From positions 2,576 to 66,575 of the forward strand of contig CADAHQ010000005.1 in the NCBI GenBank assembly GCA_902787715.1: 64,000 nucleotides of DNA. Reading direction: 5' to 3'. The translations under genes were made by a program, and so were the position numbers. Positions 3,851 through 64,000 of this stretch are shown piece by piece. The DNA comes from an uncultured Lachnospiraceae bacterium. Its GTDB lineage: Bacteria > Bacillota > Clostridia > Lachnospirales > Lachnospiraceae. The notes beneath the pieces are model-generated. The model saw only the letters and a program-made list of their open reading frames with translations, had not been told where the DNA came from and did no database searches. How positions within the stretch are numbered: position 1 is the first letter of the stretch; every line of letters starts with the position of its first letter.

Positions 3851-5605
3851 ATGTCAATCACCGATATTACCTCAATTGTCACAAAAGAAGCTTTTGGTAT
3901 CTGGTTCCTGATCGGAGCCGCACTCGTGTTCTTCATGCAGGCCGGGTTCGCCATGGTTGAGACCGGTTTCACCCGTGCGAAAAATGCCGGCAACATCATC
4001 ATGAAGAACCTCATGGATTTCTGTATCGGTACGGTTGTTTTCGTACTGCTCGGCTTCTCTCTCATGATGGCCGAGGATTATGTATGCGGATTTATCGGCA
4101 TTCCGAATCTTAAGATCTTCACCGATTTCGGTGGGTTCCTCGAGGACGGAATGGCTCCTTCCTTCGTATTCAACCTTGTGTTCTGCGCAACGGCAGCCAC
4201 CATCGTATCCGGCTCCATGGCAGAGCGCACGAAGTTCATCTCCTATTGCATTTACTCCGGCGTCATTTCGCTGTTTGTTTACCCCATTGAAGCCGGTTGG
4301 GTTTGGAACTCGCAGGGCTGGCTTGTGAAGCTCGGTTTCCACGATTTCGCAGGTTCCGCAGCGATCCACTCCGTCGGCGGTATCACCGCATTGATCGGTG
4401 CTATCCTGGTTGGTCCCCGCCTTGGCAAATACGTAAAAGACAAGAGCGGTAAAGTTACGAAAGTTAACGCTATTCCCGGTCACGCCATCACCTTAGGTGC
4501 TCTCGGATGCTTCATCCTGTGGTTTGGCTGGTACGGTTTCAACGGCGCTGCTGCCTGGGACGGAAACTCCCTTGCTTCCATCTTCGTCACCACAACGATC
4601 GCTCCGGCAGTTGCCACCTGCACCACTTTGTTATACACCTGGATTAAGAACGGCAAGCCCGATGTTTCGATGTGCCTTAACGCCTCCCTGGCAGGTCTTG
4701 TAGGTATCACCGCAGGGTGCGACGCTTTGGACGCTTTAGGTGCAAGCATCGTCGGTATCGTATCCGGTATCCTGGTAGTCATTGTTGTCGAAGTACTTGA
4801 TCTGAAGTGCCATGTGGACGATCCCGTCGGTGCCGTAGGTGTGCATTTTGCGAACGGCATCTGGGGAACCATCGCCGTAGGCTTGCTTGCAAACCCGAAG
4901 GCTCCCGCCGGGTTGGAAGGTCTGTTCTACACCGGTAGTCCCAAGCTTTTAGGCATTCAGGCACTTGGTATCGCTGCCATCCTTGCATGGACTGCAGTAT
5001 GCATGACCATCACGTTTATGATTATCAAGAAGACCATCGGTCTCCGTGTTTCGCCCGAGGAAGAGATTCGCGGTCTGGACAGCACCGAGCACGGTCTTCC
5101 GAGTTCCTACGCAGACTTCGCTCCCGCAGTTGCCGGTCTTCCTTACAGCTTCCCTGAGGCTGCCGATGCGGTTGCCGTTACCGGTGAGACGCCGGTTGCC
5201 GAGGCCGTTCCGGTAAAGAAGGTTGCCTCGGTTGTGGATGACGGTTCGCCGAAGTTCACAAAGGTTGAAATTGTCTGCCGTGAGTCCCGCTTCGAGCAAT
5301 TGAAAGAGGCCATGATGGGTATCGGTATCACCGGTATGACCGTCTCCCACGTGCTCGGCTGCGGTATCCAGAAGGGCAAGCCGGAGTTCTATCGTGGTGT
5401 TCCGGTTGAGGCCACTCTGCTTCCTAAGATTCAGGTTGACATCGTCGTCGTAGCGGTTCCGGTACGCAAGGTTATCGAGACCGCCAAGAAGGTGCTTTAC
5501 ACCGGACATATCGGCGACGGCAAGATCTTCGTATACGATGTGGAAAATGTCATTAAAGTCCGCACCGGCGAAGAAGGTTACGACGCTTTACAAGACGTAG
5601 AATAA
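3851..5605 (+). CDS. amtB: ammonium transporter AmtB fused to a C-terminal P-II (GlnB/GlnK) domain
   Basis: ORF 3842..5605. Start moved to ATG 3851, 8 nt after AGGAGG (3837-3842). The N-terminal ~410 aa are Amt-like (FFMQAGFAMVETGF, multi-TM). After a Pro/Ala/Val linker, the last ~112 aa (about nt 5261-5602) read as P-II: GITGMTVSHVLGCGIQKGKPEFYRG...TGHIGDGKIFVYDVENVIKVRTGEEG. Confidence 0.88.
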   Translation: MSITDITSIVTKEAFGIWFLIGAALVFFMQAGFAMVETGFTRAKNAGNIIMKNLMDFCIGTVVFVLLGFSLMMAEDYVCGFIGIPNLKIFTDFGGFLEDGMAPSFVFNLVFCATAATIVSGSMAERTKFISYCIYSGVISLFVYPIEAGWVWNSQGWLVKLGFHDFAGSAAIHSVGGITALIGAILVGPRLGKYVKDKSGKVTKVNAIPGHAITLGALGCFILWFGWYGFNGAAAWDGNSLASIFVTTTIAPAVATCTTLLYTWIKNGKPDVSMCLNASLAGLVGITAGCDALDALGASIVGIVSGILVVIVVEVLDLKCHVDDPVGAVGVHFANGIWGTIAVGLLANPKAPAGLEGLFYTGSPKLLGIQALGIAAILAWTAVCMTITFMIIKKTIGLRVSPEEEIRGLDSTEHGLPSSYADFAPAVAGLPYSFPEAADAVAVTGETPVAEAVPVKKVASVVDDGSPKFTKVEIVCRESRFEQLKEAMMGIGITGMTVSHVLGCGIQKGKPEFYRGVPVEATLLPKIQVDIVVVAVPVRKVIETAKKVLYTGHIGDGKIFVYDVENVIKVRTGEEGYDALQDVE

Positions 5606-56827: not shown

Positions 56828-57068
56828 CTTGTTTTGTTCCTCCGTTTCCCGGTTTCTCCGGTTTCTTGGGTGTTTCCGATCCCCCCACACGCGGGATGCA
56901 CTCCCGTCCGCGATGCGCTCTCCCCCGTAGTGTCTCCCCGGCGGAACCTCCCGCCAAGCAAAACACCGTCGCACGCAGCCGGGGCACACCCCCGTGCTTA
57001 CATTGGGCATTATACGCCCTGCGACGGTGTCAAAACATCGATTTCGGTTACAATTCCACGCGGCCATG

Positions 57069-57082
57069 TGACATTTTTGTAA
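57069..57082. promoter_or_regulatory. BceR-type regulator box candidate upstream of the ABC genes
   Basis: TGACA-TTTT-TGTAA, an imperfect inverted repeat. It matches the TNACA-N4-TGTAA pattern I recall for BceR-like regulators. A TATAAT (minus strand, plus 57009-57014) lies ~60 nt downstream. Confidence 0.4.
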
Positions 57083-59865: not shown

Positions 59866-61974
59866 TCACTGTTCCCAAGGATGTTCCGTAATAATACCGA
59901 TCAAACGCTCCCACGGCATCGGCTCCCTGCAGGCCGCAACGCTGGGAAATGCCGCCCGGATCATGGCGCAGAGACACTCCGCCTTCTCGCGGATATGCGG
60001 GCTGTTCAGAACCCGGTTGGCGTAGTGCGAGTAGCTCATCAGCACCTCCATAACCGTCGCCCGGTCCTCCTCTGGATACGTTCTTCCGTAGATTCTGGCA
60101 AACCAGTATTTGTCGGTTTCTCTCTGGCGGTCATCGTCGTAGGCCCCCAGATAGTTTTTTAATGTATAGGAATTGAAATAAGGGTATTCACTGCTGTTAA
60201 GCGCCTCCTCCCAGTACCCCAGAAGATCGCATCCGGTCTCCTTGCCGTAGGCTTTCAGCCGATAATCCATCAGATGCATGATCTCATGGGAAACGGTGGT
60301 GTACAGATTCGGATAATCCGGGTCGTACTTTAAGGCAACGTGGAGGGTCGGTCCGTCGGTGGCGATACCCACGGCATCCTCCGTCATTCCCGGGAGCCAC
60401 TTGGTCCCTTCGCCGTAAATGTAGAAGTCCATTCCCGACCGGAAACCAACCGGCAGCTCCGCGAAGAACCCCTCCGGATACTCCATCATCACCGAGCACA
60501 GGGAATCCATCATAAAAAGAAGCCGCTCCTCCTCCGCAATCGGATGGAGCACATACCCGAAGGTGAGGATTTTCATGCTGTCGCCCTTGTAATTCACCTT
60601 CGTTCCGAACCGCTTCCGAATCCACTCCGCGGTCTCCTCACAGACGTCCGTTCCGCTGCCCGCAGCCCCGCGATGCAGCACTTCCTCGCGGCGCGAAGGC
60701 TCTCCGCTGTAGTCCCAGTAATAAAACCGGTAACCGAACTCTTCGTCCTGATATATGCACAAAAGCAGCCGCGAATCGCCGACGAAAACGGCTGACTTGA
60801 TATAATTGCAGCCCGGAATCATCTCCAAGACGTTGTCAAACCGGACTCCCGTCCCCTCCGCCGTATTCACCACGGCAAATGCAGCCTTTTCGAAATTCTC
60901 CCGCCCGAGATCGTAATTCACCATGGACAGGGATACCAGGTCCCCCCGGCAATCCCTTACCACAGAAGAATCGTATCCCGGCATAAAAATCAGCCGGTTT
61001 TCCTGCGGGCGCAGGGCGGACCCCAGCTTCACCGTAGCGGAATAGCGCAAATCGTAGAGGAACGCCTCTCCCCGGCGGCCGACGACTTCGTACTCCGTCG
61101 ACTGGGAATATACCTTCTTCTCCGTTATCAGATTTCCTGCTTCGTCCTTTTCGAGGTAGAGCAGGGAAGACACACCGCTCTCCGTGACATAAAAAACGTA
61201 GGAGGTGCCGTCCATCGAGCAGAAGGTGAATTTGCCGCCCTCGCAGCGGTACTCCGCAGCGACATCTCCCTTTGCGTCCTGCGCGGTCAATGTTCCCGCA
61301 ATGTCATTGCGGAACCAGAAAAGCCCGTCCTCCGAGCAACCGACGTAGGTCCCGATGAAGGCAAACCGCCCGGTTTCCTTAAGCTCCGCGTCAAAGAAAA
61401 TCACGTTAAAATTCTTCTCATCGACATACCATACGGAGCCGTCCTCCTGCAAAAGCGCGGGCCCCAGCACGCCGCCGGTGAACGACCGCGACTTTATGTT
61501 GTCCGGCTCGTCCGCCTTAAAGAGATACATCGAGGTGGAAAATTTCCTGGCGTTGATATCGGCGGGCGAATCGAAATTCACCGCATCCACGAAAACATAC
61601 TCTCCCGCAGACACCACGCTGTGAATCAGGCGGTCCTCCGTTTTGTTGAGCGCCGCCAACGGCTTCAGAGCCTCCGTGCGGTCCACCACCGGCGTCGGCG
61701 TATGCAGCGGCACCGGCGTCAGGGTAGGCTTCGGCGTCCCTTCCCCGGGCGTCGTTCCGGTGGGCGCCGCCGTAGGCGCAGGCGTCTCCGCTCCGGGCGT
61801 CATCCCGGCAGGTGTCAGTGTTTCCTCTCCGGGCGTTATCCCGGAAGGCGTCGCCGTCCCGGCAGGTGTCGCGGAAACAGGCTTCTCCGGCGTTTTCTTC
61901 CCGCAGCCTGCACAAAGCAGCGCGAGCACTATTACAAGAATCAAAATTCCTTTTTCCCGTGCAAACCCTCTCAT
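59866..61974 (-). CDS. lipoprotein with a C-terminal HExxH (putative zinc metallopeptidase) domain
   Basis: ORF 59866..62028. ATG 61974 (GGGGGAG RBS) gives MRGFAREKGILILVIVLALLCAGC (lipobox). Thr/Pro-rich linker. The HEIMH motif in TVSHEIMHLMDY lies ~150 aa from the C-terminus. Confidence 0.72.
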   Translation of the reverse strand: MRGFAREKGILILVIVLALLCAGCGKKTPEKPVSATPAGTATPSGITPGEETLTPAGMTPGAETPAPTAAPTGTTPGEGTPKPTLTPVPLHTPTPVVDRTEALKPLAALNKTEDRLIHSVVSAGEYVFVDAVNFDSPADINARKFSTSMYLFKADEPDNIKSRSFTGGVLGPALLQEDGSVWYVDEKNFNVIFFDAELKETGRFAFIGTYVGCSEDGLFWFRNDIAGTLTAQDAKGDVAAEYRCEGGKFTFCSMDGTSYVFYVTESGVSSLLYLEKDEAGNLITEKKVYSQSTEYEVVGRRGEAFLYDLRYSATVKLGSALRPQENRLIFMPGYDSSVVRDCRGDLVSLSMVNYDLGRENFEKAAFAVVNTAEGTGVRFDNVLEMIPGCNYIKSAVFVGDSRLLLCIYQDEEFGYRFYYWDYSGEPSRREEVLHRGAAGSGTDVCEETAEWIRKRFGTKVNYKGDSMKILTFGYVLHPIAEEERLLFMMDSLCSVMMEYPEGFFAELPVGFRSGMDFYIYGEGTKWLPGMTEDAVGIATDGPTLHVALKYDPDYPNLYTTVSHEIMHLMDYRLKAYGKETGCDLLGYWEEALNSSEYPYFNSYTLKNYLGAYDDDRQRETDKYWFARIYGRTYPEEDRATVMEVLMSYSHYANRVLNSPHIREKAECLCAMIRAAFPSVAACREPMPWERLIGIITEHPWEQ

Positions 61975-62046
61975 CTCTCTTCTCCCCCGTTTCGGGCATC
62001 GTCCGATGCCCCTCATCCGACGATGCACTGAAGATAATTATACACT

Positions 62047-62075
62047 AAACCACGAACAATTCCAACCCATTACGC
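62047..62075 (-). promoter_or_regulatory. sigma-A promoter of the lipoprotein / Bce-like operon
   Basis: Minus strand: TTGGAA (plus 62070-62075), 17 nt, TATAAT (plus 62047-62052). Confidence 0.55.
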
Positions 62076-62079
62076 CGCA

Positions 62080-62190
62080 TCTTACAAGCTGTATAGTTCA
62101 GCGACTTACGCGCGACATCTTGTATGCCGCAAATTTTGGCAACTGACGCGCGATATCTTGCAAACTGTATTGTGCCGCGGCCCGCGAATG
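62080..62190. repeat. three degenerate ~37-bp tandem units (TKACGCGCGAYATCTTG...)
   Basis: Units start at 62080, 62116 and 62154: TTACGCCGCATCTTACAAGCTGTAT / TTACGCGCGACATCTTGTATGCCGC / TGACGCGCGATATCTTGCAAACTGTAT. They lie just upstream of the promoter above. Confidence 0.5.
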
Positions 62191-62220
62191 AAAAAAAAGG
62201 TGATTTCCGGGAAATTACTA

Positions 62221-62515
62221 CGGTATATGAAGAATGCGTGAGGATGCGTAGTACAAGACGTTGATGGAAGAAGAAAAAACACTCTTTCTGGGAGAAATTA
62301 CTACGCAATCAGGTGTTGTGCCGCAATTCTGTAGTAAGCAAGCGGGACATACTTGTTTCTAACAGGTGCTCCTCAGGAAGAATTACTACGGAAAACAAGA
62401 TAAAACATGGATGCGTAGTACTATTTGAAACAGATACTGTCCCGAGCAGGACAGAGCAGGGAAAAGTACTACGCAAACCCGGATAGGATTGAAAAAATGT
62501 AGTAAAACCCCGGAA
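62221..62515. repeat. four-unit tandem array (period 83-85 bp) of inverted half-sites TTACTACG-N23-26-CGTAGTA
   Basis: 5' arms TACTACG at 62226, 62309, 62394 and 62477. 3' arms (C/T)GTAGTA at 62257, 62341, 62424 and 62509. Odd units (..CGG...GGATGCGTAGTAC) and even units (..CGCAA...TGTAGTAA) resemble each other. Confidence 0.7.
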
Positions 62516-62517
62516 AA

Positions 62518-62630
62518 GACGCAAAAGCAAGTCCGGAGAAGGCAAAAGCAAACCCGAAAAAGCATAGAAACACCCCCGGGGAAGGCGCAAACAGCATCCC
62601 CCGGAATTAGCATAAAAAGCGAGGGCGCCG
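62518..62630. repeat. five degenerate 21-24-bp tandem units (CCCGGARAAGGCRCAAAAGCA)
   Basis: Units start at 62518, 62542, 62563, 62584 and 62608. The purine-rich strand is the plus strand. The last unit abuts the GH43 terminator. Confidence 0.45.
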
Positions 62631-62656
62631 ACCCCGGCGCCCTCGCAGAAAAGCCT
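62622..62656 (-). terminator. intrinsic terminator of the right-edge GH43 gene
   Basis: 12-bp stem GCGAGGGCGCCG / CGGCGCCCTCGC, loop ACCC. On the minus strand it is followed by TTTTTAT, 17 nt after the stop. Confidence 0.8.
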
Positions 62657-62672
62657 GAGCAAAAGATGGACT

Positions 62673-64000
62673 TTAGTGAATGAACCGCACCGACAACAGA
62701 TGTCCGTTGCCGCCGCCGACCTTCGTCAGATACAGGGCGGACACACCGTCCGGAATCGGGCAGGCTGCGCGATACTTCTCCCAGATGTCCGAGGAGTCCA
62801 CCTTGACGGTGCCAATGACCGGGCCGCCCAACTCGGTGCGAACCTCAAAGCTGTCATGGATGTAACCGCGAACCGTGAGCTCAATCTCCTTCACGCCCCG
62901 GAAGTTGATGTACTTAAAGCCGATGGTCGTACCCTCATGGATGTTGGCAACGTACGAAGGATTCTTATCGCCGTCGCGGCCGTCCTGGGTGATACGCGGC
63001 TGGTTGCCGATACCCACAAGCCAGTGCATCGGCTGCGTGATTTCGTTATCGAAGAGGTTGCAGGCAATGTGCGCCGGAATCTCCTCGGTGTCGCGCAGCG
63101 GACCGCCGTTTAAGCCGCAGGAGGTAATCTCCACCTGTGCAATGGAACCGTCCGCAGCAAACTTCACTTCCTCCGCACAGCCCTGACGCGAATACCACGT
63201 AGCGTTGGTCTGGCGATGGTAGAAAATGTAGCGCTTTCCGGCAATCTCGATGAGACTTCCGTGGTTGTTTGCGCCGTACGCCGCAGGCGTCTCCGCATCC
63301 TTGTAAGTTCCGATGTGGAAGTCGCTGTTACTTACAATCACGCCGCCGTAGGTGAACGGCCCCTCCGGGCTGTCCGACGTCGCGTAGCAAAGCTCGTGCA
63401 TCACTTCGCTGGAGTAGATGAAGTAGTAGCGGCCGTCGAATTTGCGGATGGACGATGCCTCGAAAAATGCATGCCCCTCATAGCCCGTGCCCTCGCTGTA
63501 GCAGGAGCCCGGAACCACGATGCGCGGCTCCTTCACGATGGTGAGCATATCCGGCGCAAGCACCGTCAGCTGCGAGCCGTGGCGGCTCTTATCGCCTCTG
63601 CCGCAGAAGCCCGTGAAGAGGTAGGTCACGTCGCCCTCGGTCAGAACGCCCGGGTCGAACTGCGGCTCGTCGCCTTCGCGCTCGCCCAGTTTCGTGCCGT
63701 CCTCATAGTGCACATAACCGTAGAATTCGTATTTGCCGGCCGGCGTGTCGCACACCGCAACCGAAACGATACCGACCTTATCCAGCACGTAGTACAGATA
63801 GTACCGACCGTCGGGACCCACGGTCACATCCGGCGCGTACAGAACCATGTTGCCGCGGGAGTTCACCGGGTCCTGGGTTTTCTTGTAGGTGACGCCTTCA
63901 TAGCGCCAGTTGCCGAGGTCGTTCACCGGCGCGGACCAGCACACATAGTCGCCCTGGCAGAACACATAGCCGTTGAATTGGTCGTGGGAACCGTACACAT
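62673..64000 (-). CDS. GH43 family glycoside hydrolase, C-terminal ~440 aa (N-terminus outside the window)
   Basis: The frame is open to the window edge. Five-bladed-propeller-type blocks (YAPDV, GRYYLYY, FEASSIRKFDGRYYFIYS) and a C-terminal beta-sandwich. The N-terminal catalytic Asp block is missing, so the gene is truncated by the window. Confidence 0.82.
   Translation of the reverse strand, partial: VYGSHDQFNGYVFCQGDYVCWSAPVNDLGNWRYEGVTYKKTQDPVNSRGNMVLYAPDVTVGPDGRYYLYYVLDKVGIVSVAVCDTPAGKYEFYGYVHYEDGTKLGEREGDEPQFDPGVLTEGDVTYLFTGFCGRGDKSRHGSQLTVLAPDMLTIVKEPRIVVPGSCYSEGTGYEGHAFFEASSIRKFDGRYYFIYSSEVMHELCYATSDSPEGPFTYGGVIVSNSDFHIGTYKDAETPAAYGANNHGSLIEIAGKRYIFYHRQTNATWYSRQGCAEEVKFAADGSIAQVEITSCGLNGGPLRDTEEIPAHIACNLFDNEITQPMHWLVGIGNQPRITQDGRDGDKNPSYVANIHEGTTIGFKYINFRGVKEIELTVRGYIHDSFEVRTELGGPVIGTVKVDSSDIWEKYRAACPIPDGVSALYLTKVGGGNGHLLSVRFIH

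Follow-up and report, generated by a model that had tools for sequence, protein, structure and literature searches.

The closest known systems to the element described here are the bacterial interspersed mosaic elements (BIMEs) of enterobacteria and the NIMEs of Neisseria. In NIMEs, dRS3 inverted repeats flank variable RS segments, and the elements are hot spots for mobile elements and strain variation. Repetitive extragenic palindromes (REPs, or PUs), whose arrays make up BIMEs, are in turn targets of the insertion sequences (ISs) IS1397 and IS621. A further array, of the centromere-like or iteron kind, is sopC of the F plasmid, which consists of 12 × 43 bp with a 7-bp inverted repeat in each unit. 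The properties of REPs, including a GTAG or CGTC tag that stays unpaired at an end of the palindrome, have been described (PMC3733652); for NIMEs see PMC1797815. We analyzed an array of four ~84-bp units in an intergenic gap of a 64-kb stretch of DNA (hereafter the window) from an uncultured Lachnospiraceae bacterium (contig CADAHQ010000005.1, positions 2,576 to 66,575). This array is a member of a dispersed, strain-variable family of intergenic palindromic-unit arrays and is not tied to the operon beside it.

The core array (62215..62505, no strand assigned) has four bipartite palindromic units of the form KTACTACR-N24/25-YGTAGTAM with a period of 83-85 bp. Unit 1 spans 62215..62254 (TTACTACG ... 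CGTAGTAC), unit 2 62298..62337 (TTACTACG ... TGTAGTAA), unit 3 62383..62421 (TTACTACG ... CGTAGTAC, with a 25-nt gap) and unit 4 62466..62505 (GTACTACG ... TGTAGTAA). Matches to TACTAC-N24-28-GTAGTA were found four times in the window, all of them in the array (as TACTAC-N25/26-GTAGTA), with 0.00 expected from 100 shuffles. The half-site KTACTACR occurs eight times within the 290 bp of the array vs eight times across the other 63.7 kb, and the eight half-sites of the array (62215, 62247, 62298, 62330, 62383, 62414, 62466, and 62498) alternate in orientation. A sequence-only reading of the window had proposed both the four-copy set and a super-unit of ~167 bp. The copies are indeed spaced by 83, 85, and 83 bp, GGATGCGTAGTAC is repeated 167 bp apart as odd and even units alternate, and the alternation of gc and cc before GTAGTA persists in a diverged allele of the array, so both proposals hold. 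An outer inverted repeat of 18 nt (83% complementary; 62204-62221 and 62499-62516) spans the array.

Metagenome contigs were scanned with a two-unit pattern, giving 26 loci (loci and assemblies are referred to by L numbers), of which 12 carry arrays of this family with 2-5 units and the same geometry. The arrays of L017 and L019 are identical, as are those of L021 and L029, which leaves about 10 distinct arrays. They are found in the T-box-led trp operon of L026, where the array separates trpG from trpD, behind a bactofilin gene (L013), adjoining a CDF transporter gene (L015) or a GH10 gene (L024), and upstream of an open reading frame (ORF) that appears MerR-like from its N-terminal sequence (L017/L019); some lie between convergent genes. 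As the GC content of the array loci spans 46-59%, the family, present here in a rumen-type Lachnospiraceae species, is carried by several taxa. The other 14 hits (L014, L016, L018, L020, L023, L025, L027, L028, L030, L031, L033, L034, L036, and L038) do not belong to it and represent phage/plasmid iteron clusters or perfect tandem repeats from other habitats.

In the 64 kb and flanks covered, copy number appears low, with one array in the window; about 10 arrays lie at unrelated metagenome loci. The covariance model R1 (35 units) matched only the four window units in 1.16 Mb (the window and 80 Clostridia loci), and thus none in the 1.1 Mb of other Clostridia loci. A pattern scan of viral contigs and a blastn search of plasmids gave 0 matches each. 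A full-text literature search for the arm sequence returned only primers, and no published description of the array family was found. L017 (1390-2700) and L019 (6860-7290), which share the same five-unit array, diverge ~70 bp after the last arm, and L017 has ~880 bp extra that encode an ATPase of 256 aa (AAA_21/AAA_15), of a family known from abortive-infection and defence systems.

Each unit pairs an arm of roughly 12 bp (consensus aTTACTACGGAA) with an inverted copy of that arm. The arms in the metagenome arrays are better preserved than those in the window and read tTTACTACGGAA-N18-TTCCGTAGTAAa, with decayed array edges in L021. From TACTAC to GTAGTA there are 26 nt in 35 of 39 units, and 24 of 26 spacers between units measure 45-47 nt. 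Loop and spacer are fixed in length and largely unconserved in sequence. Information content is limited to (a)T-TACTAC-GGAA and TCC-GTAGTA-AAA, with a weak A-run in the middle of the spacer, and positions 0-6 of the arm (T+TACTAC) are essentially invariant among 43 units. A single arm (aTTACTACGGAA) lacks an internal dyad, and complementarity exists only between two arms spaced by 26 nt.

Pairing at the variable stem positions (78.8%) is the same as in shuffled controls (79.2%), and no covariation above the shuffle control was seen (score 0.079, shuffled mean 0.087). There is therefore no sign that base pairing itself is selected. Folded as RNA, the window units reach -5 to -12 kcal/mol (z 0 to -3), two of the four being no better than shuffles, which agrees with the earlier suggestion that they make weak hairpins. 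Whole-array RNA folds gave nested long-range arm pairing and were uninformative.

Many assemblies of the same locus were found via the exact sequences of the lipoprotein and of the response regulator (RR) and histidine kinase (HK) encoded in the adjacent operon; neither the RR (100% identical) nor the promoter differs among them. The DNA that varies among these strains extends from the terminator of the preceding GH43 gene to 'gatgcggcgtaatggg'. The window and L009 have four units and both flanking sets of short tandem repeats (see below), and L008 is built in the same way with extra 21-, 38-, and 24-bp copies. L006 and L011 have one unit, via a microhomology deletion. L003 has four units without the 38-bp and 21-bp repeats, and L012, which also lacks these repeats, has one unit and equals L003 minus an in-register deletion between two copies of TACTACGCTTTC. 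Unit number within the species hence runs from 1 to 4. The copy-number variation that the sequence-only reading had considered worth looking for among strains is thus real, with one vs four units beside an identical RR and promoter. Flanking sets and unit number vary while the operon stays unchanged (L012, L006, and L011), which is what that reading had named as evidence against a tie between repeats and operon, and the tie has to be given up.

The flanks of L006, L011, and L012 are 97-98% identical to the window. For L003 the flanks are 97.7-98.1% identical, yet the array only 68.6%, whereas L008, with 93% overall identity, still has the window-type array. Because the L003 array is far more diverged than its flanks and the distant L008 shares the window-type array, we conclude that there are two old allele classes of the array, which recombine among strains. 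Between the 68.6%-identical alleles every unit keeps its arms, the 26-nt arm-to-arm distance and the gc/cc alternation, and strain variation does not account for the persistence of the arms. The in-register deletion that separates L012 from L003, together with a two-unit duplication in L026 (158 bp, 93% identity), shows that arrays grow by in-register duplication of one or two units and shrink by in-register deletion.

Four metagenome scaffolds (L001/L007, L004, L005, and L010) have 100-N gaps in this intergenic region, corresponding to window 62080-62640, and in L004 and L005 the gap covers the whole variable segment. These gaps probably arise from mixed allele classes in the sample together with the tandem repeats. 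A 3.5-kb assembly with an identical lipoprotein (L002, 1-165) contains unit 1 and then, 34 nt past the arm (after window 62287, + strand), unrelated DNA of ~45% GC. This DNA is open for at least 56 codons (MEEETTLFEAIYGRDEFKGLNKW...), the first eight of which lie within the spacer between units 1 and 2 of the window. It had no protein homologue and no plasmid or viral-contig match, and tblastn against phage records yielded nothing beyond a weak chance match (E 0.2). An insertion or a chimeric assembly may account for this DNA.

Arrays of the 84-bp type are the target of an IS256-family element. The complete element is present in L037 (Transposase_mut, E = 4e-110, with IS256-like terminal repeats). 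One IS end adjoins the array 27-29 nt past GTAGTA in L032, L035, L037, and L121, and the other end lies 27-28 nt ahead of TACTAC in L022 and L024. L035 and L024 have the 8-bp target duplication ccgcttaa in common, and when joined they restore a 47-nt spacer, which places the insertion at spacer positions 21-28, the exact centre. L121 (1-62) comes from the window's own species and carries the L003-type allele with the IS256-family element in the spacer that separates its second unit from its third; the contig ends within the IS element. No two of the adjoining spacer halves are alike, so four or five insertions took place independently at one relative position. IS256-family elements are usually credited with little target specificity, and a literature search on this specificity found nothing useful. 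Judging from the insertion sites, something in the array directs the transposase, be it the structure or a bound protein.

The array shares with BIMEs the alternating palindromic motifs, the two alternating linkers, the extragenic location, a copy number that varies among strains and its use as an IS target. Unlike BIMEs it is built from ~12-bp arms rather than stem-loops, and it takes two arms, separated by 26 nt, to make a palindrome; each of the two linkers has a fixed length and a free sequence, copy number is apparently low, and the host is a Firmicute. The repeats are not 20-40-bp imperfect palindromes of the REP/BIME type, and in place of an unpaired GTAG/CGTC tag there is a GTAG inside the paired arm (GTAGTA/TACTAC). 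The REP-like position between unidirectional or convergent genes, downstream of ORFs, is found in the window, L013, L015, L017, and L026. No RAYT (Y1) transposase was seen among the window ORFs, part of which were scanned against Pfam. With arms that are not palindromic by themselves, a paired GTAG and a seemingly low copy number, the array falls outside the REP/BIME class.

NIMEs resemble the array in that short conserved inverted repeats alternate with variable segments and that mobile-element insertion and strain variation occur, but their sequence is unrelated, their segments of 50-150 bp fall into repeat families, and they lack the strict 38 + 46 bp geometry of the array. Like sopC, the array is a tandem one with a fixed period and a short inverted repeat in each unit, which in sopC is a protein-binding site. 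The sopC units are, however, near-identical and lie on a plasmid beside the partition genes, whereas those of the present family are dispersed over chromosomal sites, have diverged and lack a linked gene.

We suggest, giving it about an even chance of being right, that this is a BIME/NIME-like palindromic-unit array in which the arms would be recognition sites on duplex DNA for a trans-acting protein. The suggestion draws on an arm sequence conserved without covariation, on strict spacing with free sequence, and on arm centres that are ~32 and ~53 bp (about 3 and 5 helical turns) apart. The putative protein, either architectural or mobile-element-related, would recognize the arms as sequence-specific sites on the duplex. 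Sites spaced by about 3 and 5 turns would face the same side of the helix, which could allow cooperative binding. Unit number changes by in-register duplication and deletion and the IS256-family element enters at the centre of the long spacer, as shown above; the same slippage-prone context would have yielded the 38-bp and ~22-bp repeats on either side. A more tentative extension, which we regard as possible but rather doubtful, is that the candidate binding protein is a so far unrecognized one common to several rumen Clostridia and that the phased nucleoprotein array, in which the number of units may vary freely, serves as an IS256-family landing pad, with insertion at the dyad centre flanked by two bound units.

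Several observations weigh against arms that act as protein-binding sites. The neighbourhoods of different arrays have no gene in common, the helical-phase argument is arithmetic, and the fixed gap length could partly come from shared descent. Attempts to read an array polarity from flanking GGAAAT/AAAA motifs failed a position weight matrix test trained on four homologous arrays. Hairpins formed by RNA or by single-stranded DNA would account for a palindrome just as well, and the better-preserved metagenome units do fold well (-14.5 to -21.6 kcal/mol, z -3.5 to -6.2). Stem position 7 has 10 G.T pairs, 4 A.C and 2 compensated A-T pairs, an excess of G.T that gives a weak hint of pairing.

These last points feed the main rival, according to which the units are REP/BIME-like hairpins that act in RNA or single-stranded DNA by stabilizing 3' ends, attenuating read-through or stalling replication, with the likeness of the arms due to common descent or mobilization by a transposase. 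Besides the strong folding of well-preserved units and the pairs at position 7, the GTAG within the arms and the targeting of palindromic units by ISs, known from REPs, would fit this. The arrays also lie downstream of genes, often right after terminator hairpins (window, L017, and L013), or inside an operon (L026), a distribution that resembles that of REPs (PMC3733652). Yet covariation does not exceed the shuffle control, half of the window units are no stabler than shuffles, no Rfam family matches, and individual arms are not palindromic. A stabilizer needs neither an invariant 7-bp core nor a fixed 26-nt loop, and copy number looks low, with one array in 64 kb and none in 1.1 Mb of other Clostridia loci; we consider this explanation improbable, though a serious one. 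Neutral debris, in which an old tandem duplication or the remains of a miniature transposon decay and the arms are alike through recent ancestry, seems unlikely. Unit number is clearly dispensable, array edges decay (L021), the window units are degenerate relative to the metagenome consensus, and the flanking variable-number tandem repeats (VNTRs) suggest slippage. Decay would not, however, leave 7-12 bp intact at fixed positions: every unit of alleles that are only 68.6% identical retains its arms and their 26-nt distance, and the same arms are found across contigs of 46-59% GC with unrelated loops and spacers.

The sequence-only reading had viewed the half-sites as arrays of dimer-binding DNA sites upstream of a promoter, which would make them operators for a dimeric regulator of the adjacent lipoprotein/Bce-like operon. 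Their character as DNA sites stands, given the lack of covariation, the weak hairpins and the fixed arm distance, and inverted, regularly spaced half-sites 150-450 bp upstream of a good promoter, in front of an operon that encodes an OmpR-type RR, made an operator attractive; the half-sites also start with TTAC.. and end with ..GTAA-like sequence, as do the operators of Bce-type RRs. The S. mutans class of such operators is TTACAA-N2-TTGTAA (PMC11034029), with half-sites 2-4 nt apart, whereas those of the array are 26 nt apart. A proper BceR-type box, TTACAAAAATGTCACA, with a half-site spacing of 3-4 nt, lies instead on the minus strand at 57067-57082, upstream of the ABC-ATPase/FtsX genes, and about 52 nt downstream of it there is a TATAAT with a poor -35 (57009-57014); this box is probably the real target of the operon's RR. 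The closest RR relatives (90-92% identical, in metagenome-assembled genomes of rumen Lachnospiraceae/Lachnoclostridium) have different upstream genes and no array unit beside the RR/HK genes. Since unit number varies among strains with identical regulator and promoter, the same arrays occur at unrelated loci, these relatives are arrayless and the BceR-type box lies elsewhere, a regulatory array for the adjacent promoter is not supported; the strains largely refute it, and we regard it as very improbable. The array is not the operator of the lipoprotein/Bce-like operon; at most it passively keeps the lipoprotein promoter at a distance from the GH43 terminator. Just as remote is the idea of site-specific recombination sites, either of an inverton/shufflon or of an integron-like cassette array. 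It could explain the eight sites in alternating orientation, the 18-nt outer inverted repeat (83% complementary) around the array, the frequent assembly breaks or N-gaps at this place (L004, L005, L010, and L001) and the L012 deletion in register with the arms. The N-gaps nevertheless fall at allele-class boundaries and are probably explained by mixed strains. Eight resolved assemblies with 3' context are all collinear, no inverted segment was seen in these or between the orthologous arrays of L017 and L037/L022, and there is no recombinase gene within +/-10 kb, so that an inverton/shufflon was rejected. An integron attC array was likewise rejected, because the arm TTACTACGGAA misfits the R boxes (RYYYAAC/GTTRRRY) and the 46-nt 'cassettes' are geneless.

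Other identities for the array were also tried. A structured RNA family was rejected as covariation equals the shuffled expectation and no relevant Rfam match was found: searches of the window region (E<=10), of the whole window (gathering thresholds) and of five canonical arrays (E<=1) gave only terminator-like noise. A CRISPR array does not fit a ~12-bp motif in alternating orientation without a common neighbour gene (no search was aimed at cas genes). Coding repeats, with a small ORF at 62264-62362 (MEEEKTLFLGEITTQ...), were rejected because the period is not a multiple of 3 and a 1-nt indel shifts the frame in L003. On the purine-rich + strand of the gap there are about 16 GGA triplets by our own count vs about 9 expected. 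A CsrA sponge or small RNA on this strand was dropped as it has no promoter, and elsewhere the arrays start ~23 nt after a terminator, which leaves no room for a small-RNA promoter. The sequence ATTTCCGGGAAAT (62204-62216) adjoins unit 1, and similar TTCCGGAAAT motifs precede arms in L013, L017, and L022. ATTTCCGGGAAAT is one base short of the Noc-binding palindrome of B. subtilis (ATTTCCCGGGAAAT), a resemblance that is probably a coincidence.

On either side of the array the window has short tandem repeats, also noted in the sequence-only reading. The ~37-bp set of that reading was confirmed by Tandem Repeats Finder (TRF) as a 38-bp repeat at coordinates shifted by ~10-20 nt (62070..62170, no strand; period 38, 2.7 copies, 69% matches). 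It is a strain-specific VNTR grown out of the local sequence ..aagatgcggcgtaatgg. The proposed set of five ~22-bp units fared less well. It is a degenerate repeat of 20-25 bp (62508..62620, no strand; about five units CCSGRRAAGSC.AAA.GCA), likewise a strain-specific VNTR, with two clear copies (62521-62562, 81%). The other three are degenerate and of variable length (20-25 nt each; autocorrelation 0.38-0.41 vs a background of ~0.28), and TRF does not call the set in the window. It does call it in L008 (21 bp, 2.7 copies, 94%), which has one more ~22-bp copy than the window. A BceR box inside the 38-bp repeats (ATACAGCTTGTAAG) was rejected: the likeness is partial, the spacing wrong, and the repeats are missing in L003 and L012, which have the same promoter. 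Other short tandem repeats were found within ~100 bp of seven of the 12 arrays scanned (11 distinct loci, as the L017 and L019 arrays are the same), so the appearance of three repeat families in the window reflects a recurrent property of array sites. We infer that local replication slippage gives rise to the flanking tandem repeats.

The array lies in an intergenic gap of 698 nt between two minus-strand genes, with a GC content of 0.43-0.49 within the gap vs 0.57-0.62 around it, in line with the lower GC reported before. Upstream is a GH43/CBM6 gene (stop at 62673) and downstream a lipoprotein-like gene (ATG at 61974), of which the 702-aa product has no Pfam match. The latter heads an operon with genes for an OmpR-type RR, an HK, a polysaccharide deacetylase, an ABC ATPase and an FtsX-type permease, and this operon is a Bce-like module. 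The intrinsic terminator of the GH43/CBM6 gene (62619..62646, minus strand; 12-bp GC stem and T-run) marks the edge of the variable region and is kept in all strains compared. A predicted sigma-70-like promoter of the lipoprotein operon, TTGGAA-17-TATAAT, was found where it had been proposed (62065..62037, minus strand). It lies outside the repeat element, and its segment is identical across strains whatever their repeat content.

The 5' untranslated region (UTR) of the lipoprotein mRNA has a 13-bp stem-loop (61996..62026, minus strand; 12 of 13 positions paired) that is not part of the repeat element and directly precedes the GGGGGAG ribosome-binding site. Three substitutions at paired positions of this stem (in L003, L006/L011, and L008) are all C-to-T and leave G.U pairs in the mRNA. 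The N-terminal part of the lipoprotein (window 61600-61900) is rich in Pro, Gly, and Thr at 70% GC. The protein varies between 684 and 716 aa among strains, and L008 has a 48-bp tandem repeat in this part (4036-4133). Elsewhere in the window, a stretch of ~940 nt (46640-47579) has no convincing ORF, tRNA or Rfam match and is flanked by a flavodoxin-like ORF, assigned by eye, and a 597-aa gene.

The locus needs a different annotation, as what looked like a regulatory array of its own belongs to a dispersed family: there is no operator here, and the repeats are dispensable for the operon. Three features are unusual. Conservation across taxa is confined to 7-12 bp per arm, with both gaps conserved in length and not in sequence; the array alleles are far more diverged than their flanks; and insertions of one IS256-family element have hit the exact centre of the long spacer four or five times independently. 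A structural or protein-guided IS256 target would interest transposon biologists and could explain assembly breaks at such loci in rumen metagenomes. If true, a phased-array landing pad would give Firmicutes a chromosomal landmark or safe-harbour system of a new kind.

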